A stretch of DNA of 64,000 nt from Candidatus Taylorbacteria bacterium RIFCSPHIGHO2_01_FULL_46_22b. Its GTDB lineage: Bacteria > Patescibacteriota > Minisyncoccia > Phycocordibacterales > DSPV01. The notes under the pieces are model-generated. The model was not told the origin of the DNA. It searched no databases and saw only the letters and a program-made list of their open reading frames with translations. Each line of letters begins with the position of its first letter. The first letter of the stretch is position 1. The stretch spans positions 73,992 through 137,991 of the forward strand of contig MHRF01000013.1 of NCBI GenBank assembly GCA_001820875.1. Direction: 5' to 3'. The position numbers were made by a program, and so were the translations under genes. Positions 2,696 to 57,836 of this stretch are shown in pieces.

Positions 2696-4627
2696 TTATA
2701 GCATTTTCCTTACAACACCTCTCTCTGCATCAACCTCAATCCTATCGCCAGTTTTTAAAACTCGCGTGATATCCCGCACACCGATTATACAAGGCACATT
2801 GAGTTCTCTCGAAATAACCGCCGCATGACTGGTAACTCCACCTTGTTCTGTAACAATTGCTACTGCTTTCTTCATGATGGGCACAAACTCCGGAGTTGTT
2901 TGATTGGTTACCAAAATCTCTCCTTTCACAAAAGACTTCATGTCTTCAGCAGTACGTACAATATGAACGTGGCCTGTGGCGAATCCACGGCACGCGGGAA
3001 CCCCCTTCCATTCAACTTCTTTTTTATGTTCTCGTGCACCTGCTTCGAAAAAGCCCTGTGCTGTGGCACCCTCGGCAATAAAATATCCTTCAGGAGTTAC
3101 TGCGTAGAAAGTTCTTTCCTTTCTCTGTGCGATCAACTCGGCGACATCTCTTCCTTCAAGCAAGACTGCTTTTACTTCCTGAAAAATCAAGAAGGTAAGA
3201 TCTGATTTTGAATATGAAACCCGACGGGAGAGCTCTTCGAGAAAAAGATCGTAATAATGCATGCCTATATATGATCCCTTTTTGCGTTCATCTTTCCATT
3301 CTGCAAAAAGCCATGCGACTTTGATCAATTCTCGAGTAAAATTCGACAGGTTAATCTTTTCGAAGGTATCATCGCGCTTTTTCTTAGCTACCTTTCTACC
3401 TCTGTTTCTCTTCTCCATAATTTCTACAAACGAAGATTTTGACGCTCGTAGCTCTTCAGACTTTTTTTGCAGTTCAGAATAAAAGAAATCAATAGTCAGA
3501 ACTTCGGCAACAAAATAATTGTTGTGTATCCAGAAAAAAGACCGCGTATGAGCTTCTAATTTCTTATATAACCTCGGCTGCTCTGCCTGCATTGTCTCAA
3601 GCGACGGCAAGTCAGTTGGGTACACTTTCTCAATCGCAGTAGCAATTTCTATAAGTTTCCACTCTGCTTCTAATGTATATGAATCAATCAGGGGATTTGT
3701 CAGTGTGCGGACGATTTCTGGAACATCTTTGGATACAACGCCTTTAGCAACGAGTTCTTGGGAAATAACACTTTCAAGCCAATCAATCTCTCCAGTGGAC
3801 ATAAAAGTGTCCGCCATATATGCAACTGAACCGGCTAAAAGGTACCCGATGTGGAATTGTTCAAATAAATCACAGAGATCCTCATCTGAAAGCATCTTGA
3901 AATTTGTCTGGTCAATCTTTTCTCTGATTTCATCATAGGACTGCCAATCTTTCCGCCATCCAATTTGTATATTTAAAAAAGGAATGCTTCCTTCTTTCTT
4001 GATTTTATCGACAATCCAATCGCGAACTTGCTGTACACTGTCCCAATCTAGAAACCAATTCCCCTCATTTCCTTCTTGGAACCCGAAACAATATCCATAG
4101 TGAGGTGAAAACCGTTCTGAAAATGCATGGAGTTCACTTTCAGATGCAGCAAAAAGGGTAAAAAGCTTAGAATGGAAATTTTTATTAAAATCAGAACTCG
4201 TCTTCCGTACTAACTCAATCGGAAAATCAGAAAGTTTCTTTGCTAGAGGTTTAAATGTCTCCTGTTTTCCAATAACTTTTACTTCTATATTAGGAAAATG
4301 GGATTGCAAATCCTCTCGAAGTTCATGCTGATCATGCCCAATCGCAACAGCGTCAGGTTTGTGCTTCGCGAAAATTTCCCAACTTCCCTGCACTCGGTCA
4401 CCAATAACAACTTGATCGACAAGCTTAGCGGCGGCAAGTGCCGCCGCCCGCTCTTCCATGGTTAAATTCGGTATTCTCTTTTTGAGTGTCTTGACTGCTT
4501 CATCATGCGCAACAACTGCAATTAGATAATCTCCTAATTTCTTTGCTTCACGCAAAAAATAATGGTGCCCAATATGTAAACCATCAAATGTTCCAAACGC
4601 CATTACTTTTTTATTTTTCTTCGGCAC
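2696..4627 (-). CDS. Array paralog P2, three-domain fusion: N-terminal HxGH cytidylyltransferase-like nucleotidyltransferase, then the helical domain (FFWIHNNY, WKDERKK), then a C-terminal PEP-utilizer domain
   Basis: 643-aa ORF. The N-terminus has MAFGTFDGLHIGHHYF (HxGH motif of the cytidylyltransferase/FAD-synthetase-like fold). The C-terminus reads IVTEQGGVTSHAAVISRELNVPCIIG. The annotated start at 4627 is GTG; the first ATG is at 4603 (MAFGTFDG..), which is the more likely start. Confidence 0.8.
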   Translation of the reverse strand: MPKKNKKVMAFGTFDGLHIGHHYFLREAKKLGDYLIAVVAHDEAVKTLKKRIPNLTMEERAAALAAAKLVDQVVIGDRVQGSWEIFAKHKPDAVAIGHDQHELREDLQSHFPNIEVKVIGKQETFKPLAKKLSDFPIELVRKTSSDFNKNFHSKLFTLFAASESELHAFSERFSPHYGYCFGFQEGNEGNWFLDWDSVQQVRDWIVDKIKKEGSIPFLNIQIGWRKDWQSYDEIREKIDQTNFKMLSDEDLCDLFEQFHIGYLLAGSVAYMADTFMSTGEIDWLESVISQELVAKGVVSKDVPEIVRTLTNPLIDSYTLEAEWKLIEIATAIEKVYPTDLPSLETMQAEQPRLYKKLEAHTRSFFWIHNNYFVAEVLTIDFFYSELQKKSEELRASKSSFVEIMEKRNRGRKVAKKKRDDTFEKINLSNFTRELIKVAWLFAEWKDERKKGSYIGMHYYDLFLEELSRRVSYSKSDLTFLIFQEVKAVLLEGRDVAELIAQRKERTFYAVTPEGYFIAEGATAQGFFEAGAREHKKEVEWKGVPACRGFATGHVHIVRTAEDMKSFVKGEILVTNQTTPEFVPIMKKAVAIVTEQGGVTSHAAVISRELNVPCIIGVRDITRVLKTGDRIEVDAERGVVRKML

Positions 4628-6017
4628 GTTTCAAAATCGTTACCACTCCCTTCTCCGCGTCCACCTCCACCAAATCGCCGGTTTGTAGAATTTTTGTCGC
4701 AATTTGTGTCCCAATAACAGCGGGTACATTCAACTCTCGAGCCACAACCGCAGCATGACTGGTAATTCCTCCTTCATCAGTTACAATTGCCGCTGCTTTT
4801 GCACATAAATGGACAATCTGTGGACGTGTCATACCCGTTACCAAAATCTCTCCCTTCTGAAACGCACTTACTTGTTCATTGTAATCAGATGTGACAAAAC
4901 TGACGACACGAACACGGCCTATGACCTTTCCCTTATTTGCAACACTCCCTTTGAAGGTGCTGACAGCACTAAAATCTTCAGCTACCAGCTTTTTATATTT
5001 GTCTGCCTCTTCACCAGTAAGTAAAACAGCCCAACGATTATTTAAAATTGACACATATCCTGACTTACGGCGTCGAATTTCTTCCATATCAATTTTTTGT
5101 CCCGAGAAAAACGCAATCATTTCTTCTACAGTAGCAAACTCAAGATCAGGCTGTTTGCTTCGGAAAACTAATTCCTCAAGGATTTTCTTAAGATGATAGC
5201 GAAGATGCATGAAATGATACCTTGTCCAAAATCGCAAACAACCAAGTTCTCCAATAAGTCTCCCTAGATTCAAAATCTCCGGCGGAACTGGAATGTCAGG
5301 CGTCTTCACACCTTCTTTTACAAAAGAAAGAATCTTTTCTCTATAATGATCCGCATCAAATGGTTTCTCTCCTTCTATTTCATTAAACCATCCATATTGA
5401 GTCACAAATTTTTGGAGTAAAATATTCTGTGCATCAACAGAAAGAATCGACCAACGCTTGTATGCCTCTTCAATTTCTTTTTCTTCCTGTGCCCAAGGTA
5501 AATCTTCCGGCCAATAAGTTGAGGCGCGCAATAACTTGTCTTTTTCTTGGTACTTATCAAGAAGAGTTGTTATTTTCTCTTCAAGAGATTTGACGTGCTG
5601 CGGATTACTGATAAACATGCGGGCCAAGGTTTTTAGCATTTGATTGAAGAGTGTCTGCACATCCACAAGTAAAGCCAAGGTCTCTTTTTCTTTCCAAACT
5701 TGTTTCCATGCCCACTCTTCCATTTCCTTTGCTTCAGTAAACAGCGTCTTCCGTACATCGGTTAATAAACTTTTTATTCTTTCTGGATCCTCCCAGACTT
5801 TTCTGAAATACTCGCCAGCTTGATTCATTTCCTCAACGTCAAAATACGCCCGATTAGACATATCAGGAGAGACAAGATAAATCACATTCTTGTATTCAAA
5901 CCCTGCAAAATCAAAAAAAGTTTTAGCAAAAAATCCTATGTGGGCAGCGGTATAGTACGGTCGAACAGCACGAGTTTCAAACATTCGCTTATATATTCTT
6001 TTTGCGTTCTGTTCCAT
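4611..6017 (-). CDS. Array paralog P3 (helical domain + PEP-utilizer domain)
   Basis: 468-aa ORF. The C-terminus reads IVTDEGGITSHAAVVARELNVPAVIGT. Confidence 0.85.
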   Translation of the reverse strand: MEQNAKRIYKRMFETRAVRPYYTAAHIGFFAKTFFDFAGFEYKNVIYLVSPDMSNRAYFDVEEMNQAGEYFRKVWEDPERIKSLLTDVRKTLFTEAKEMEEWAWKQVWKEKETLALLVDVQTLFNQMLKTLARMFISNPQHVKSLEEKITTLLDKYQEKDKLLRASTYWPEDLPWAQEEKEIEEAYKRWSILSVDAQNILLQKFVTQYGWFNEIEGEKPFDADHYREKILSFVKEGVKTPDIPVPPEILNLGRLIGELGCLRFWTRYHFMHLRYHLKKILEELVFRSKQPDLEFATVEEMIAFFSGQKIDMEEIRRRKSGYVSILNNRWAVLLTGEEADKYKKLVAEDFSAVSTFKGSVANKGKVIGRVRVVSFVTSDYNEQVSAFQKGEILVTGMTRPQIVHLCAKAAAIVTDEGGITSHAAVVARELNVPAVIGTQIATKILQTGDLVEVDAEKGVVTILKRAEEK

Positions 6018-6113
6018 ACAGATGATACTACCTTATATTAAAACTGTTTGACAATAGATATTATATCGTGTTATAGTGTAAATCGATCACAAAAACCTCC
6101 TCCGCAGTAATGT

Positions 6114-6599
6114 GTGAGGAACAAACTGAAAGGAAGTACCTTGAGCACTCCCCACAAAATCCTCTGTCTCTGCCTCGGAAATTCCGACCGAAGCCCAGTC
6201 ATGGCCGCCGTTCTGCACATGTATCTCACCAGTGCAGGCTACACTGACGTCATTGTCGAGAGCGCCGGAGTCGGTGATTACGCGAAAACAGGTGGCAAAC
6301 CTGCCCCATTTGGTGTCGCCGCCGCGAAATTCCTTGGACTTCACATCGGTGGCCACACACGTCGTCACGTTGAAACACTGAAGCTCGACGATTACGATCT
6401 CTTTGTCTGCGCCGCAGATGACGTTGCCCGAGAACTCCTCAAGTTCTGCGGCGATCGGAGCAGGATGTTCAATGCCAACGTAGCAAACCCCTTCCCAGTC
6501 CAGTTCCAACAGGACTACGAACCGTGCATGATCGCCATCCTTGGCGGCATGTACCGTGTCGTCGCCCGCTACTTCCCTCCCCAATCCTTCGAGATGTAG
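6114..6599 (+). CDS. Low-molecular-weight phosphotyrosine phosphatase / ArsC-family (CX5R) phosphatase-like protein
   Basis: P-loop motif ILCLCLGNSDRSPVMAA (C-x5-R-S) near the N-terminus. The gene is GC-richer than the flanking array. A more likely start is the TTG at 6151, preceded by AGGAAG. The overlapping minus ORF 6087..6584 lacks any motif. Confidence 0.6.
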   Translation: MRNKLKGSTLSTPHKILCLCLGNSDRSPVMAAVLHMYLTSAGYTDVIVESAGVGDYAKTGGKPAPFGVAAAKFLGLHIGGHTRRHVETLKLDDYDLFVCAADDVARELLKFCGDRSRMFNANVANPFPVQFQQDYEPCMIAILGGMYRVVARYFPPQSFEM

Positions 6600-6616
6600 C
6601 CGCCTCTTTCTTCATC

Positions 6617-6652
6617 AGCCCAACCGCTTGCGGTTGGGCTGACTCTTTTATT
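6617..6652 (+). terminator. Rho-independent terminator after the CX5R phosphatase gene
   Basis: Hairpin AGCCCAACCGC-TTGC-GGTTGGGCT followed by a T-run (CTTTTATT). Confidence 0.5.
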
Positions 6653-6925
6653 GCCTAGCGAGTGAGCAACCTAAATTTCAAGGAGCAAAGCGACTATGAA
6701 ATTGGAAGCACTCTTGTGGTACGGAGAGAAAAAGTATCTTCGTTTTCTCTCCCGAACGAGCGACCTAGATTTCTTACGAGCATAGCGAATGTAGAAATCG
6801 GAAGTACTCTCGTGGTGCGACGGCAACAAAGGGTTTAATATCTCGCCCGTGGGGGGGTGAAAGCATTCGCGAAGCGAATGCTTTTTGTGTCTAGGATTTG
6901 ACCTAGGGTTAATACCCTTTATTTC
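6651..6925. repeat. Intergenic repeat element, copy A. It is two tandem ~70-nt subunits, then a terminal hairpin AAAGGGTTTAATA/CCCTTT that is split by a ~70-nt insert.
   Basis: TTGCCTAGCGAGTGAGCAACCTAAATTTC...GTGGTGCGACGGCAACAAAGGGTTTAATA is nearly identical to 57638..57836 and partially matches 55046..55200. Confidence 0.65.
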
Positions 6926-8025
6926 CTCTCCAAGATTTTCACCGTTCCTTTCTCGCCATCAACTTCAACAATATATCCATCTTTTAGTACATGAGTTGCG
7001 TACTTGAGTGCAACCACACAAGGAATCCCAAACTCACGCGAGACTACCGCAGCATGGGAAAGTAATCCTCCTTGATTAGCGAGAATCGCAGACGCTTTTT
7101 CACACGCAGGCATAAATTCGGGTGAAGTTGTTTCGGCAACCAAAATATCTCCTTTTTCCATTCTCTCAAATTCTTTTGCCAGCGAATCAAATGTCTTTGG
7201 ATCAGAAACAATAACCTTAACCCGTCCAATAACTTTTCCTTTGCTTGCAGGAATACCCTTTAGAATCTGAATTTCAGAGGGAATTTCTTCTCCCGCCTGT
7301 TTTAATAACGTAAGAATATCGTCTTTGACTTGCGCTCCGGCATGGACCGTAACTGTATTACCTTCCCCAATAATCACCCTCGCTTCTTTCCTATCTCTGG
7401 TCACTTGCGAATCAACCTTCACTCCATCAAAAAGTTTGTAGATATCATTGACCCCGTAGTATTTGAGGTCATGTATACTCACACCAAACTGCTTTTCAAG
7501 CTTGCGAGACATCTGGCGGAAATATGAGTCCTCGCCAAACCAAGGATAGTTAAAAATCTCCACTCTCGAACGCTCTTTGAGTTTGTAATTCCTCATCAGA
7601 TTTTCTTGCATCACCGGATTATTTACGGAGAGTTTATATGCCTTATCGGTATAGAAAAACTCGGTTCGGTAAAAGAACGATGTCGCCAAGCACCAATGTC
7701 CAAGAAATTTCTCAACATTTTGTTTGGTAAGTATTTCGGGTTTCTTTATCTCCGAATCAAATATTTCTAAGAGCTTGTTGAGATATTCAACATGGGCATT
7801 GAAATATTCGTTAAACCGTTTAGTGTCGGCAAAAAACTCTGCGCCATCATCAAGCTGTGCTTCAAGTACTTTTTTAGGAAGCCAGCAGTACCAACTGTCA
7901 TCAATAGCAGTTTCCAGTGCATAGAAACCTTTATAAAAGCCCATCCATGCATCACTCATCAAAAAATCAATCCCCTCAAAGTGGAACAATCGTTGATACT
8001 GTTTTGATTCGTCTATGAATTTCAT
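6919..8025 (-). CDS. Array paralog P4 (shorter helical domain + PEP-utilizer domain)
   Basis: 368-aa ORF. The C-terminus reads ILANQGGLLSHAAVVSREFGIPCVVAL. Confidence 0.8.
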   Translation of the reverse strand: MKFIDESKQYQRLFHFEGIDFLMSDAWMGFYKGFYALETAIDDSWYCWLPKKVLEAQLDDGAEFFADTKRFNEYFNAHVEYLNKLLEIFDSEIKKPEILTKQNVEKFLGHWCLATSFFYRTEFFYTDKAYKLSVNNPVMQENLMRNYKLKERSRVEIFNYPWFGEDSYFRQMSRKLEKQFGVSIHDLKYYGVNDIYKLFDGVKVDSQVTRDRKEARVIIGEGNTVTVHAGAQVKDDILTLLKQAGEEIPSEIQILKGIPASKGKVIGRVKVIVSDPKTFDSLAKEFERMEKGDILVAETTSPEFMPACEKASAILANQGGLLSHAAVVSREFGIPCVVALKYATHVLKDGYIVEVDGEKGTVKILERK

Positions 8026-14101: not shown

Positions 14102-14776
14102 ATGAACTCAAAACTGAACCAAACCATTGTAGCAAGACTCCTCCGTGGAGGATTTGCACTTACTCGACACAACACCAAATTCACCTTCCTCCGACACGCG
14201 CATGCGGTCGCCGCAGATGGTGGTCATGACTCGGACCGACGTATCTCGAGCAAAGGACAGAAGCAGTGCGCTGCCATGAAATCCGTCTTTGAGACACGGT
14301 CGTTCAATGTGACTTATCGCTCCCCGCTCATACGTGTGTGGGATACGCTAGTCGCACTCAACATCCAGAGCCCCGAAGATACCACGATTAAAGAACTGGT
14401 CATCGAGTACGGACAAGAAACCCGTCAGTCGGGTGTGCTCGACGCCGCCTACGAAATCATGGGGAGCGTCGGACTCGCTGATATCATGAAGCACAAAGAA
14501 GTCGCCACAGCGATGGACGAGTTCGCCGCCCATGCACTGGCAAAACTCAATCTGCAAATCCAAGATGTGTCAGCGGACCGCGGCCAGAAATTCAACGTCC
14601 TTGTCGCCGGCCACGGGTGGCTCAATCCCATTCTCGCATATTACATGGCGGGAACAAATGAGACAGCTCGTCGCCATCTCCTCTACCACCCAATGGGCGA
14701 GTGTGAAATCATCGAGGTGGGAATCACAGAAGATGGGAGTCCTATCTGGAACCACATCCCCTGTCCCGCCGTTTAA
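14102..14776 (+). CDS. Histidine phosphatase superfamily protein (phosphoglycerate-mutase-like / SixA-like branch)
   Basis: N-terminal FTFLRHAHAV (RH catalytic dyad of the RHG motif) and a downstream VLVAGHGWL (second conserved His). The gene is GC-richer than the array and on the opposite strand. Confidence 0.6.
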   Translation: MNSKLNQTIVARLLRGGFALTRHNTKFTFLRHAHAVAADGGHDSDRRISSKGQKQCAAMKSVFETRSFNVTYRSPLIRVWDTLVALNIQSPEDTTIKELVIEYGQETRQSGVLDAAYEIMGSVGLADIMKHKEVATAMDEFAAHALAKLNLQIQDVSADRGQKFNVLVAGHGWLNPILAYYMAGTNETARRHLLYHPMGECEIIEVGITEDGSPIWNHIPCPAV

Positions 14777-14843: not shown

Positions 14844-15135
14844 ATAAAAACGCTCGAGATGCAAATGGATAAAAATACTCTTTCAAGGCATCCCCACGTA
14901 TCTCATATTTGGGAGATTCCCGCACCGTGTCATCAATCACATCCTCTAAGAGAGAGAGTTCAGCTCCTCTTGCTTTCATTTCAGGCGCAGAGCTAAGTTG
15001 CTTGAGAATCACATGTGCTCGTACCAGACATTTCTCGGCATTTTCTCTATCCCCTTTTTCTTTCCAATCCAAAAGACGCGAGACTTCACTGCCTAAATTT
15101 GCGATCAAAAATCGTGGTGTGCGTACTACACTCAT
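14842..15135 (-). CDS. Hypothetical small protein (97 aa), co-operonic with P9
   Basis: ATGA overlap with the upstream ORF 15132..15476. No recognisable motif. Confidence 0.4.
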   Translation of the reverse strand: MSVVRTPRFLIANLGSEVSRLLDWKEKGDRENAEKCLVRAHVILKQLSSAPEMKARGAELSLLEDVIDDTVRESPKYEIRGDALKEYFYPFASRAFL

Positions 15136-15476
15136 ATAACTTTTGCATCTACAATTTCCTTTATTCTCTGCCGAATTTTGTCATCTTGAATATACATCTC
15201 TCTATTACCCAAAGATGGTTTGATATTGATAAGCGCCGTATATTCCAATCTCTCCTCTTTGGGTTTATTAAAGACAATATTGAAACCCCAAATATTCACC
15301 GCACTTGAGCCTGCATCAGTGAGTACGGTTGCCGCATCAATATGATATTCGCCTCCAAGCGCGACAACACCGTTTGCAATATCAATAGCTCCTTTTACCA
15401 TATCATCATAAAACTCCTTGCCGATTTCTTTGGCTTCGTCAATCGATATGGTATCTTTTATAATTTTTATATTCAC
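15132..15476 (-). CDS. Hypothetical small protein (114 aa), translationally coupled to P9
   Basis: Its start overlaps the P9 stop (ATGA at 15473..15476). No recognisable motif. Confidence 0.45.
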   Translation of the reverse strand: MNIKIIKDTISIDEAKEIGKEFYDDMVKGAIDIANGVVALGGEYHIDAATVLTDAGSSAVNIWGFNIVFNKPKEERLEYTALINIKPSLGNREMYIQDDKIRQRIKEIVDAKVI

Positions 15477-23419: not shown

Positions 23420-24370
23420 CTATTTCAACGTAGTAATCGGACGGGATTGGACGATGTAGAATTTGCCATCTTCGCGCGCCCATTCGATATCACAGGGGAA
23501 TTTGTAGTGATTCTCAATTTTGATGACAAGATCGGAAAGGGCAAAGATTTCTTCGTCAGAGAGGACTTGTTTTTCGCCTTCGGATGAAGATATATCGCGC
23601 CATTCATTGCCGCCATGTTCACCAGATTTTTTAAAGAGACCCCGTTCTTGTGTCACTACATTTTTATCGAGAATCAACCGGTCACTTTTATGCACAACAT
23701 AACTATCGGGTGTAATTTGCCCTGACACCACCGCCTCGCCAAGCCCAAGAGCCGCTTCAATGATGAGTTGATTTCGATCTTCTGTGACTGGGTGCACCGA
23801 AAATGCGATACCTGCTGCTTCGCTTTCAACCATTTTTTGTATCACTACCGCAACTGAAATCTTTGTATTATGCAATTCCTTTTCAAAACGATAAAAAACT
23901 GCGCGCGGAGTGAATAGAGATGCCCAACAATGTTGAACTTTTTCAAGGACATTCTTTTCAGTGGTATTAAGAAAACTGTCGAGTTGACCTGCCCATGCAG
24001 CGCTTGCAGAATCTTCGGCGGTTGCCGATGAGCGCACCGCGACAAATTTTGCTCCCAATCGCCCGAATTCAGCTCCGATAGTCGATGCAATATCCTGCGG
24101 CATTTTTGCTTCAAGTATCATCTCCTGAATCTTCTCTGACGCTTTCTCAACTGTATGAATTTCCTGATGATTAACGGTATGCAAAATCGCATCAATCTCA
24201 ACTCCCAAATCAGTCTCGGCAAGAAAACGCTCAAATGCTCCTGCAAGCACCACGAAACCCTCGGGCACGGGAATTCCCGCTTGGGTCATCTCGCCAAGCG
24301 AGGCGCCCTTCCCACCTGCAATCGCGGCATCTCCTTTATTCAATTGGTCAAATCTACGTACAATTTCCAT
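23420..24370 (-). CDS. Stand-alone ATP-grasp nucleotide-binding domain protein of the PEP synthase / pyruvate-phosphate dikinase / rifampin-phosphotransferase N-terminal type (PPDK_N-like)
   Basis: 316 aa. N-terminal AIAGGKGASLGEMTQAGIPVPEGFVV, then ...VAVRSSATAEDSASAAWAGQ..., ...IVQSRPIT. No downstream His or PEP-binding domain within the ORF. It is the first gene of the array. Confidence 0.8.
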   Translation of the reverse strand: MEIVRRFDQLNKGDAAIAGGKGASLGEMTQAGIPVPEGFVVLAGAFERFLAETDLGVEIDAILHTVNHQEIHTVEKASEKIQEMILEAKMPQDIASTIGAEFGRLGAKFVAVRSSATAEDSASAAWAGQLDSFLNTTEKNVLEKVQHCWASLFTPRAVFYRFEKELHNTKISVAVVIQKMVESEAAGIAFSVHPVTEDRNQLIIEAALGLGEAVVSGQITPDSYVVHKSDRLILDKNVVTQERGLFKKSGEHGGNEWRDISSSEGEKQVLSDEEIFALSDLVIKIENHYKFPCDIEWAREDGKFYIVQSRPITTLK

Positions 24371-24577: not shown

Positions 24578-24648
24578 CGGGGTGTAGTATAGTGGTAGTA
24601 TACACGTTTCGGGTACGTGAGGCCCGAGTCCGATTCTCGGCACCCCGA
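24578..24648 (+). tRNA. tRNA-Pro (anticodon CGG)
   Basis: Acceptor CGGGGTG/CACCCCG, anticodon stem CACGT/ACGTG with loop TTCGGGT, T-arm CCGAG-TCCGATT-CTCGG. The D-arm is slightly irregular. Confidence 0.75.
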
Positions 24649-24650
24649 TA

Positions 24651-24721
24651 GGGCCTGTAGTCTAGTGGTACGACGCGTCATTCGCATTGACGAGGCGGGG
24701 GTCCGATTCCCCCCAGGTCCA
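24651..24721 (+). tRNA. tRNA-Ala (anticodon CGC)
   Basis: Acceptor GGGCCTG/CAGGTCC with a G3:U70 pair, anticodon stem CGTCA/TGACG with loop TTCGCAT, T-arm GGGGG-TCCGATT-CCCCC. Confidence 0.85.
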
Positions 24722-25275: not shown

Positions 25276-25327
25276 AAGCCATTGGGCTCGTCAAAAATTA
25301 AAAAGTACGCTACTATATCTTTTTAAT

Positions 25328-25400
25328 GGGCCCTTAGCTCATCTGGTAGAGCGCCTCATTTGCAATGAGGAGGTAAGCGGTTCGAGCCCGCTAGGGTCCA
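25328..25400 (+). tRNA. tRNA-Ala (anticodon TGC)
   Basis: Acceptor GGGCCCT/AGGGTCC (G3:U70), D-arm GCTC-ATCTGGTA-GAGC, anticodon stem CCTCA/TGAGG with loop TTTGCAA, T-arm AGCGG-TTCGAGC-CCGCT. Confidence 0.9.
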
Positions 25401-25558
25401 AAACGTACGAAAAATACCTGCTCTGCAGCAGGTTTTTTCGATGTTTGGGAAGCCGGAGCTATGTTTTGCCTTCAAGCAAAACAGGCGAGGCAGGGTCGTG
25501 GAATTTTGCTTGCGGCGGCAAGCAAAATATCCCTGACCAAAAACAGTCCACCCACTGC

Positions 25559-27321: not shown

Positions 27322-27379
27322 GGGCGGCTCGATTTGACGCTTTGTTTCTTTGGGGCGTCAGACGAGCCGCCCTTTTTTA
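27322..27379 (+). terminator. Orphan terminator-like hairpin (GGGCGGCTCG...CGAGCCGCCC + T7)
   Basis: 10-bp GC stem with a ~31-nt loop followed by TTTTTTATTT. There is no plus-strand CDS upstream. Confidence 0.3.
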
Positions 27380-27446
27380 TTTGAAAATATTGACAAATCC
27401 TAGAAATCTGGTAATACGTATAGCAGACCTTACGGAACAACCTTTT

Positions 27447-28322
27447 ATGAAAACATCCCTGAACCTCGTCGTAGCCGCACTTCTCGCGGTTTTCATCAAC
27501 ATACCCTCGCCTGCTTCGGCCGGCGGCGGGAAGTACCAACTCGTCCTTACCCCAGCAAACCCGTGGGTGGGGCAGTCCTGTTCCCTCTTCATTGATACCC
27601 CAACGGGGATCTCAACGTGGGGCGACTGGATCGCTCTCTACCCCATCGGCAAACCACTCCAGTCGCAAACCGTCTACAACTTGTTGGGGCACAGAGACTG
27701 GACCATTGGTACCACATTCCATACCGCGGGTGACTGGGTTCTCCAATACATGGGAGGCGATGGCGTCGGCTTGTCTGAACCCATTATCTTCACTGTCAGG
27801 TGGCCTGATAGGTCAATCTATCAGGTCTCGGTCAGCACCAACCGAGTTGTGGTGGGTACGCAAGTCCGATTCGCGTGGAAGCTACTGCAAACGAACTTCA
27901 GCCGCACAGGCGACACCGTCGGCTACTACAGTCACGCCGATCCCAATCGCGTCCTGACAGATGTCATTACGCGGGCGAACACCGAGGGGAGCTACTACTT
28001 CCCCATGTCTCGACCAGGGACGTACCACTTCGGGTACTTCATTGGCGGAACTGCTGATAGAATTGCCGGCGAACCAATTGTGGTCACCGTCTTACCAATA
28101 CCGGTTCAACCCGCACTCGCCAAAACAGGTTCCACCACCACCATCGGGTGGTTTGGTCTATCGGGAGCAACTTACACGTTGCTCTCGACCACGAACCTGA
28201 ACACACCACTTGGTGGTTGGGAAAACATCGCCGTGCGGGATGGAGCGGGCGGGAATCAAACCGTCTCACTCCCTTCGCACGATCAACAGCGGTTCTACAC
28301 CGTGGTTGAGTCGTGGCCATAA
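27447..28322 (+). CDS. Secreted hypothetical protein
   Basis: Signal peptide MKTSLNLVVAALLAVFINIPSPASA. A TTGACA/TAATAC promoter-like pair lies at 27390..27417. The ORF-track start at 27342 falls inside the upstream hairpin. Confidence 0.55.
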   Translation: MKTSLNLVVAALLAVFINIPSPASAGGGKYQLVLTPANPWVGQSCSLFIDTPTGISTWGDWIALYPIGKPLQSQTVYNLLGHRDWTIGTTFHTAGDWVLQYMGGDGVGLSEPIIFTVRWPDRSIYQVSVSTNRVVVGTQVRFAWKLLQTNFSRTGDTVGYYSHADPNRVLTDVITRANTEGSYYFPMSRPGTYHFGYFIGGTADRIAGEPIVVTVLPIPVQPALAKTGSTTTIGWFGLSGATYTLLSTTNLNTPLGGWENIAVRDGAGGNQTVSLPSHDQQRFYTVVESWP

Positions 28323-57629: not shown

Positions 57630-57637
57630 ATTTTTAT

Positions 57638-57836
57638 TGTCTAGCGAGTGAGCGACCTAAATTTCAAGGAGCAAAGCGACTATGAAATTGGGAGCACTCT
57701 TGTGGTGCGGAGAGAAAATGTATCTTCTTTTTCTCTCCCGAACGAGCGACCTAGATTTCTTACGAGCATAGCGAATGTAGAAATCGGAAGTACTCTCGTG
57801 GTGCGACGGCAGCAAAGGGTTTAATACCCTTTATTT
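57638..57836. repeat. Intergenic repeat element, copy B (two tandem ~70-nt subunits plus an intact AAAGGGTTTAATACCCTTTA hairpin)
   Basis: Near-identical to 6651..6840. Confidence 0.65.

Follow-up and report, generated by a model that had tools for sequence, protein, structure and literature searches.

Within a stretch of 64,000 nucleotides (nt) from Candidatus Taylorbacteria bacterium RIFCSPHIGHO2_01_FULL_46_22b (contig MHRF01000013.1, hereafter called the window), the region 6018-6925 contains a plus-strand gene for a divergent cysteine phosphatase with the fold seen in low-molecular-weight protein tyrosine phosphatases (LMW-PTPs), which interrupts a long minus-strand array of genes for predicted dikinase subunits. 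A relative of this gene adjoins a gene of the array type on the opposite strand in all 15 loci compared, and the phosphatase very probably belongs functionally to the dikinase array as a genuine, conserved partner. Its role is most likely that of an off-switch; the more specific proposal that it discharges the phosphohistidine (His~P) of the array proteins, acting as a His~P phosphatase, is tentative and held at slightly less than even confidence. The fold and the phosphate-binding loop (P-loop) of the enzyme are known, while the altered catalytic residues and the conserved genomic partner are new: a literature search on Patescibacteria dikinase arrays, PPDK_N/PEP-utilizers architectures and phosphohistidine activity of LMW-PTPs returned no description of either the pairing or the LMW-PTP variant.

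The phosphatase gene and its product

The region is bordered by two minus-strand genes (4611-6017 and 6919-8025), both of which end in a PEP-utilizers domain. The following features define the phosphatase gene between them:

6129-6136, plus strand: Shine-Dalgarno-like AAAGGAAG, read from the sequence, 4 nt upstream of the TTG start
6141-6599, plus strand: phosphatase gene, start codon TTG at 6141, 152 amino acids, divergent LMW-PTP-fold cysteine phosphatase
6165-6194, plus strand: active-site segment C9-L-C11-L-G-N-S-D16-R17-S18, from family alignment A2 and hhalign
6486-6497, plus strand: D-loop equivalent N116-P-F-P (family consensus NPWP), from hhalign, with N116 and P119 invariant in A2

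The mechanically called open reading frame (ORF) spans 6114-6599 on the plus strand and opens with GTG at 6114. As judged from the sequence, TTG 6141 is likely to be the true start, because it is preceded by AAAGGAAG and because the homologues start 5-10 residues ahead of a C-x-C motif in the active site, mostly with ATG and behind AAAGGAG-type sites. The product of the longer frame matches the Pfam family LMWPc (PF01451) with E=1e-10 and 42.4 bits (gathering score 23.2), although the alignment covers only profile positions 1-100 of 144, and LMW-PTPs are its nearest relatives among solved structures (5jnv, E=1e-6). The profile search that a first-pass annotation of this DNA had proposed thus supports its assignment of the gene to the LMWPc superfamily. 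The family is small: among 1.84 billion cluster representatives, 22 match with E<=1e-30 and 298 with E<=1e-10; the relatives collected (n=34) come from Patescibacteria assemblies, share 40-60% identity and are about 143-160 amino acids long.

The same annotation had considered that the gene might be the antisense shadow of a minus-strand ORF at 6087..6584. This minus ORF has no Pfam match, and of 16 orthologous loci only 4 have the frame uninterrupted, the other 12 containing 1-6 stop codons in it; therefore, it is the minus ORF that represents the shadow, and it was dismissed as a gene. Note that public gene calls may hide members of the family. The call for the window's own protein (P0001, 132 amino acids) begins at an internal methionine, Met21, and thereby drops the P-loop; P0041, P0046, P0048, P0052 and P0058 are cut likewise, several representatives measure 127-132 amino acids, and Met21 is invariant. 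Calls for this family hence often start too late and omit the P-loop, and proteins called in this way resemble weak or partial LMWPc matches.

An AlphaFold2 model of the phosphatase, calculated with the family alignment as input (predicted local distance difference test score, pLDDT, 94.6; predicted template modelling score, pTM, 0.90), contains the complete LMW-PTP fold, with a four-stranded parallel sheet, the P-loop after strand beta1 and a C-terminal helix. In Foldseek, the model aligns over its whole length with Wzb, YwlE, YfkJ and bovine and other mammalian LMW-PTPs (template modelling scores 0.74-0.81, about 150 columns). All of the top 50 structural matches are true LMW-PTP-fold enzymes, and the IIB domains of the phosphotransferase system (PTS) are absent from these 50.

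The P-loop CLGNSDRS is encoded at nt 6171-6194, with the nucleophile Cys11, Arg17 and Ser18 intact. Across the 33 family members of alignment A2, the residues C9, C11, G13, N14, D16, R17, S18, P19, N116 and P119 are invariant, so that the conservation of the CX5R motif, on which the first-pass annotation had made its claim depend, holds for C11 and R17 in all 33. C9 is an extra cysteine two residues ahead of the nucleophile, giving the C-x-C motif. In canonical LMW-PTPs, the second P-loop cysteine protects the nucleophile by forming a disulfide. Comparison of A2 with 24 canonical sequences (CTGNTCRSPM ... DPYG) by hhalign (probability 99.95) places D16 opposite this invariant second cysteine of CTGNTCRS, and NPWP opposite DPYG, with N116 facing the canonical invariant general acid/base Asp. 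Among the 150 best library representatives, NPWP and DP[YF]G occupy one and the same sequence position. Catalytically competent LMW-PTPs are defined by the D-loop Asp (in DPY or DPF), which serves as their general acid/base (PMC7772506); our literature search yielded no usable data on D129A kinetics. According to these alignments, the family has kept the nucleophile and the phosphate cradle and has lost the canonical acid. The model scores for the Wzb/Etp equivalogs lie far under their cut-offs (NF007520, 32.4 bits versus 243; NF008486, 18.9 versus 247).

Conservation of the gene pair

The gene context was compared in 15 loci, taking one genome per species and annotating with hidden Markov models built from the window's own genes. 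A relative of the phosphatase gene adjoins a PEP-utilizers gene on the opposite strand in 15 of 15 loci, whose taxon labels include Paceibacterota, Vogelbacteria, Moraniibacteriota and 'Saccharibacteria'. The orientation of the two genes is convergent, except in L019, where the locus lies at a contig end and the gene is divergently upstream. For 13 of the 15 loci, the flanks that were fetched include a PPDK_N gene (stand-alone, 318-335 amino acids) or a fused PPDK_N domain. The same pairing recurs with distant variants of the phosphatase in which the active-site motifs differ, namely P0138 (GNHDRSP/NPWQ), P0094 (GNHDRSP/DPHG) and P0098 (GNTCRSP/NPWQ); the contig of P0066 is only 1.3 kb long and adds no gene context. 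This synteny (15 of 15 loci plus four variants, with P0044, described below, as the fourth) favours functional antagonism, one of the two explanations offered by the first-pass annotation, and speaks against the other, a preferred landing site for foreign DNA.

A fixed one-to-one partner finds no support, since a full-length orthologue of the 368-amino-acid neighbour encoded at 6919-8025 is adjacent to the phosphatase gene in only 4 of the 15 loci (L004, L007, L010, L012). A defence-system reading was rejected: PADLOC gave no match for the phosphatase, two array subunits, the PPDK_N protein or the His_Phos_1 protein described below. In the orthologous array of another Patescibacteria genome, a Fic-domain gene is situated between PEP-utilizers paralogues (L001:6908-7960).

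A 208-amino-acid protein with faint similarity to LMWPc is encoded on a contig with the archaeal markers L7Ae, S28e, EF-2 and TrmB. It has the P-loop FVCTGNQGRSP and IPNAYG in place of DPYG, and its gene lies directly upstream of a gene for a 360-amino-acid PEP-utilizers protein on the same strand, the two spanning L035:9373-11083. The pairing of phosphatase and PEP-utilizers genes may extend to DPANN archaea.

Transcription signals and base composition

The phosphatase gene is an independent transcription unit, delimited by two signals on its own strand:

6048-6077, plus strand: sigma-70-like promoter, TTGACA, 18-nt spacer, TATAGT, with TG ahead of the -10 element; 11 of 12 consensus matches
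6615-6652, plus strand: intrinsic terminator, stem TCAGCCCAACCG / CGGTTGGGCTGA followed by a T-run

The promoter lies within a divergent region of 123 bp shared with the minus-strand gene 4611-6017, and a weaker minus-strand promoter-like site (6054-6025, 9 of 12 matches) overlaps it. The terminator hairpin (6615-6642) has a 12-bp stem with 8 GC pairs and is followed by CTCTTTTATT. It is kept in 13 loci (the window plus 12, alignment A5), with 94% of the alignment cells paired; compensatory changes have altered both partners in 6 of 9 pairs, and the observed value was reached in 0 of 500 shuffles. In addition, genomes that share about 50% identity in their proteins have retained the stem CAGCCCAAyC/GrTTGGGCTG at the nucleotide level, which exceeds what a generic terminator would need.

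With a GC content of 0.562 and a GC content at third codon positions (GC3) of 0.65, the highest GC3 in the window, the phosphatase gene stands out against the window means of 0.446 and 0.42 (standard deviation of GC3 0.075), which were derived from 61 greedily called ORFs including a few shadow ORFs, and against the array genes (GC about 0.41, GC3 0.34-0.43). The gene is hence GC-richer than its surroundings, as the first-pass annotation had noticed, although the excess does not mark it as foreign: it recurs in 17 of 17 loci, whose overall GC content spans 0.32-0.57, amounting to +0.012 to +0.165 for GC and +0.06 to +0.41 for GC3 relative to the array genes. Because it is present in all 17 loci, the GC excess is a property of the family and no mark of recent transfer into this genome. 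Replication-strand composition was ruled out as its cause, G+C being strand-symmetric, and in a comparison of GC content between plus- and minus-strand genes across the loci, the AT-rich array genes act as a confounder. Within the window, the real genes with the three highest GC3 values, 6141-6599 (0.65), 14102-14776 (0.60) and 27342-28322 (0.62), all lie on the minority plus strand.

The dikinase array

The array occupies positions 1-24370 of the window on the minus strand and consists of a PPDK_N gene followed by at least 15 PEP-utilizers paralogues, reaching position 1 and continuing beyond. Its head, the two genes next to the phosphatase gene and a second gene inserted on the plus strand are:

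23420-24370, minus strand: stand-alone ATP-grasp PPDK_N subunit, head of the array (PF01326, E=3.7e-98)
4611-6017, minus strand: divergent neighbour, swivel-domain paralogue of 468 amino acids, starting the next sub-operon (PF00391, E=1.7e-23)
6919-8025, minus strand: convergent neighbour, dikinase subunit of 368 amino acids with a substrate-binding and a C-terminal swivel domain (PF00391, E=2.8e-24)
14102-14776, plus strand: gene of the His_Phos_1 superfamily, second opposite-strand insert (E=3.7e-7, above the gathering score; GC3 0.60)

The PPDK_N product matches the N-terminal third of the models for phosphoenolpyruvate (PEP) synthase and rifampin phosphotransferase (RPH). The paralogues combine a divergent N-terminal domain with a conserved C-terminal domain that carries the swivel histidine, and all paralogues whose translations were read retain the motif GG-x-[TLA]-[SCA]-H-A-A (for example GGLLSHAAV). 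The DNA around the catalytic histidine codon recurs 13 times in the window (repeat family D3). An AlphaFold2 model of the 368-amino-acid subunit (pLDDT 96.6) has rifampin phosphotransferase (5fbt, 5fbu, 5hv1) as its top fold matches, with E~2e-12 over 283-370 columns, and the likeness therefore reaches beyond the swivel domain alone.

Since this neighbour folds like the substrate-binding and swivel parts of rifampin phosphotransferase, the array is predicted to form a two-component dikinase, in which one ATP-grasp subunit would serve about 15 alternative subunits. The same division of labour, with a His~P intermediate, is known from the two-component dikinases HpeHI, CreHI and PpsAB (PMC12167813; PMC4844700); in HpeHI, HpeI represents the ATP-grasp subunit, while HpeH consists of an RPH-like substrate-binding domain and a swivel His domain (PMC12167813). 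Patescibacteria have tiny genomes, and yet about 23 kb of this one are devoted to a single ATP-grasp subunit together with about 15 swivel-histidine subunits. This arrangement of one charger with many substrate modules is probably the larger discovery, and the conserved, separately transcribed phosphatase offers a first handle on the control of such arrays.

The array is broken by two plus-strand genes, those for the LMWPc and the His_Phos_1 proteins, which bears out the earlier observation that two different phosphatase superfamilies interrupt a phosphotransfer array. The His_Phos_1 gene had been labelled SixA-like. It does represent a real phosphatase gene as judged from its His_Phos_1 match, but the identity with SixA is left without a model to support it: no SixA-specific model matched the product, and NCBIfam gives only weak cobC/PspA matches, far below the cut-offs. 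In locus L001/L006, the His_Phos_1 gene sits directly upstream of the LMWPc gene.

Some further genes in and near the array may be recorded here. One paralogue (2696-4627, minus strand) has an N-terminal domain resembling cytidylyltransferases and FAD synthetases (PF01467, E=2.8e-16; PF06574, E=2.7e-7), and a DUF5674 protein (15132-15476, minus strand, E=4.6e-25) is encoded inside the array beside the His_Phos_1 interruption. Immediately upstream of the array head, at 24578-24721 and 25327-25401, lie genes for tRNA-Pro(CGG), tRNA-Ala(CGC) and tRNA-Ala(UGC), followed by those for a bacterial PH-domain protein and a D-Ala-D-Ala ligase.

Possible functions of the phosphatase

If the array works like its homologues rifampin phosphotransferase and HpeHI, its phosphoryl group would travel from ATP via His~P to a substrate. 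The phosphatase could oppose this path if Cys11 attacked the phosphohistidine of the charged swivel domains, forming a phosphocysteine (Cys~P) intermediate whose hydrolysis would free phosphate and leave the carriers discharged and reset. The swivel His~P is proposed as the substrate because phosphohistidine is the common feature of the linked proteins, and such a common substrate appears simpler than many different products because two unrelated phosphatase superfamilies have been recruited to the same arrays. As a leaving group, phosphoimidazole is good from the outset and should require little acid catalysis, which would make the canonical Asp dispensable, and Asp16 of the P-loop or the conserved Asp125 may assist the hydrolysis of Cys~P. 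If the enzyme indeed acts on phosphohistidine, the LMW-PTP fold would join the short list of phosphohistidine phosphatases, and an active site that looks like a natural Asp-to-Asn 'substrate trap' would be explained. The arrangement of the genes suggests an additional level of control. The phosphatase gene divides the array into sub-operons, and transcripts reading through from upstream would cross it in antisense direction; since it has its own promoter and terminator antisense within the array, read-through and phosphatase expression should interfere. From this geometry, the expression of kinase and phosphatase may even be mutually exclusive.

Several observations weigh against phosphohistidine as the substrate or against a strict coupling to the array. 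At least two members, P0044 and P0048, carry DPWP and have kept the Asp, indicating that the Asn is not obligatory, and P0044 (from the same record as L017) is found in the identical pairing with a PEP-utilizers gene. The adjacent paralogue varies among the genomes, and no specific protein partner can be named; moreover, one cluster of a PPDK_N and three PEP-utilizers genes has no LMWPc gene within 10 kb. YwlE cleaves a P-N bond in phosphoarginine and yet retains its Asp, and the loss of this residue is therefore no proven signature of P-N substrates. A phosphohistidine phosphatase of the LMW-PTP family was not found in the literature search, and to our knowledge none is known.

Against this background, other functions have to be considered. 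The enzyme might dephosphorylate the small-molecule products of the dikinase, thereby completing a phosphorylate-transform-dephosphorylate pathway or reversing a modification, which we regard as unlikely but as the strongest of these alternatives. The two-component dikinase AcvAB is encoded together with a dedicated phosphatase, AcvF, acting on its product (bioRxiv 10.1101/2022.04.28.489975), LMW-PTPs hydrolyse aryl phosphates while the known two-component dikinases phosphorylate phenols (PMC12167813), and the conserved synteny fits a product phosphatase equally well. However, AcvF is a member of the haloacid dehalogenase (HAD) superfamily and is co-transcribed with its kinase, whereas the gene described here is a unit of its own, with promoter and terminator, on the opposite strand. 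Moreover, the products that one small enzyme would need to accept would stem from about 15 divergent substrate-binding domains, and the loss of the general-acid Asp should cripple the hydrolysis of those aryl or alkyl phosphates whose leaving groups are poor. The same loss would suit a non-hydrolytic enzyme, in which Cys11 takes over the phosphoryl group of the swivel His~P and either retains it or hands it to an acceptor other than water, as in PTS IIB: the Asp acting as the base in Cys~P hydrolysis is Asn in 33 of 33 members, which should stabilise Cys~P, and the C9-x-C11 pair is invariant. The fold of the cellobiose-specific PTS IIB is also reported to resemble that of LMW-PTPs (van Montfort et al. 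1997). Transfer from His~P to Cys~P is well established in the PTS (PMC5025809). An ATP-driven phosphorelay leading from the ATP-grasp subunit over the swivel His~P to Cys11~P would amount to a PTS-like His-to-Cys relay assembled from components of dikinases in Patescibacteria and perhaps also in DPANN archaea, but we consider it quite improbable, as PTS IIB domains are missing from the top 50 structural matches, no candidate for a downstream acceptor is conserved in the loci, members with the Asp (DPWP) share the same context, and Asp16 or Asp125 could stand in for the lost base.

The remaining explanations do without a role in the array. The closest relatives in sequence and structure, Wzb, YwlE, YfkJ and eukaryotic LMW-PTPs, would be in keeping with a housekeeping phosphatase for protein phosphotyrosine or phosphoarginine whose position in the array is functionally meaningless. 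Such an explanation is very unlikely, given that neither the adjacency in 15 of 15 loci nor that of the distant variants is expected of a neutral position, that the Pfam-annotated genes of the homologous loci include no bacterial tyrosine kinase (BY-kinase) or McsB-like gene, and that the defining D-loop Asp is gone and the Wzb/Etp equivalog scores are far under their cut-offs. That the gene is recent foreign DNA in a permissive spot of the array, as suggested by its contrast in GC content with the array, its top GC3 value and the dispersed repeat adjoining it, is extremely unlikely. The GC excess is common to the orthologues, and position, orientation and terminator hairpin are conserved at 40-60% protein identity, a divergence expected for vertical descent together with the array; these findings, together with the absence of the repeat from the orthologous sites, leave the landing-site idea of the first-pass annotation unsupported. 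Its 'ArsC-type' label did not stand either. A thioredoxin- or glutaredoxin-coupled arsenate reductase (LMWP-type ArsC) would share the superfamily and the CX5R loop, weak matches to ArsC structures occur, and one homologous locus has an ArsP_1 and an HTH_5 regulator gene 5-7 kb away, but the score for TIGR02689 is 13.4 bits against a cut-off of 157.6, and none of the loci has an ars operon next to the gene. The redox triad of the P-loop Cys and two downstream cysteines is not conserved either: invariant cysteines are limited to C9 and C11, several members lack the Cys of the 'VCA' motif, and there is no conserved second Cys downstream. Arsenate reduction thus is barely conceivable.

The repeat element downstream of the phosphatase gene

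The terminator is followed by a repeat of about 200 bp, as stated in the first-pass annotation, and by a segment that is peculiar to this copy:

6646-6840, plus strand: dispersed structured repeat of 195 nt, two degenerate hairpin units of ~70 nt around a 10-bp palindrome (GGAGAGAAAA..TTTTCTCTCC)
6841-6918, plus strand: extra segment of this copy alone, with hairpin AAAGCATTCGCGAAGCGAATGCTTT and repeated terminal GGGTTAATACCCTTTATTT, ending at the stop codon of the next gene

The repeat is 96% identical over 195 nt to a second copy at 57632-57826; for its core, the chance expectation is 0 in 100 shuffles. The two hairpin units are 77% alike, and at both sites in the window the repeat ends with a small hairpin directly against the next gene's stop codon. 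Related copies with non-homologous flanks occur on unrelated Patescibacteria contigs (L024:13867-14069, from a metagenome, 91.6% over 203 nt; L026:897-1015), and a more distant one lies at L019:3719-3811. By inspection, without quantification, a few base changes between the copies keep the inner stem paired. The repeated part of the extra segment corresponds to a match of query positions 307-325 to subject positions 219-237.

No Rfam family was matched by the repeat or the intergenic regions; a Ref64 match in 6841..6918 (E=0.017, 25.9 bits against a gathering score of 44.3) was taken as chance. The repeat is not found at the orthologous intergenic sites. Because the convergent gap measures 25-72 bp in 13 of the 15 loci, compared with 319 bp in the window, the repeat is an independent insertion past the phosphatase terminator and outside the conserved module. 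It may represent an element resembling miniature inverted-repeat transposable elements (MITEs) or an unrecognised small RNA.

Comparison with known systems

With the LMW-PTPs (Wzb/Etp, YfkJ, PtpA) and YwlE, the phosphatase shares the full-length fold and the P-loop framework C-x-G-N-x-x-R-S-P. It differs from them by the Asn in place of the D-loop Asp, the Asp in place of the second P-loop Cys and the extra invariant Cys, and its genomic partner is a dikinase array rather than a BY-kinase/capsule locus or McsB. In its active-site logic alone, it also resembles Cdc25 (C-E-F-S-S-E-R), in which the P-loop Arg directly follows an acidic residue and a canonical acid loop is lacking; Cdc25 is a eukaryotic enzyme of the rhodanese fold acting on phosphothreonine and phosphotyrosine in cyclin-dependent kinases. 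PTS IIB likewise has its Cys in a P-loop-like turn without a general-acid Asp and receives its phosphate from a phosphohistidine protein (PMC5025809), but it hands the phosphate on to an IIC-bound sugar, for which no partner is present here.

The array has a separate ATP-grasp subunit and RPH-like/swivel subunits as in HpeHI, CreHI and PpsAB, its kinase activity being predicted. AcvF of the AcvAB/HpeHI pathways and the present enzyme are both phosphatases genetically coupled to a split dikinase of ATP-grasp and swivel subunits (PMC12167813); however, AcvF is a co-transcribed HAD enzyme acting on a product, in contrast to an LMW-PTP fold encoded in an opposite-strand unit next to about 15 kinase subunits. 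The job proposed here from synteny, the removal of phosphate from a phosphohistidine carrier domain, would be similar to that of the phosphohistidine phosphatases SixA, PHPT1, LHPP and PGAM5. These enzymes have unrelated folds, and SixA and other phosphohistidine phosphatases use His as the catalytic residue rather than Cys. The superfamily of SixA is that of the His_Phos_1 proteins, a member of which has been recruited to the same arrays.

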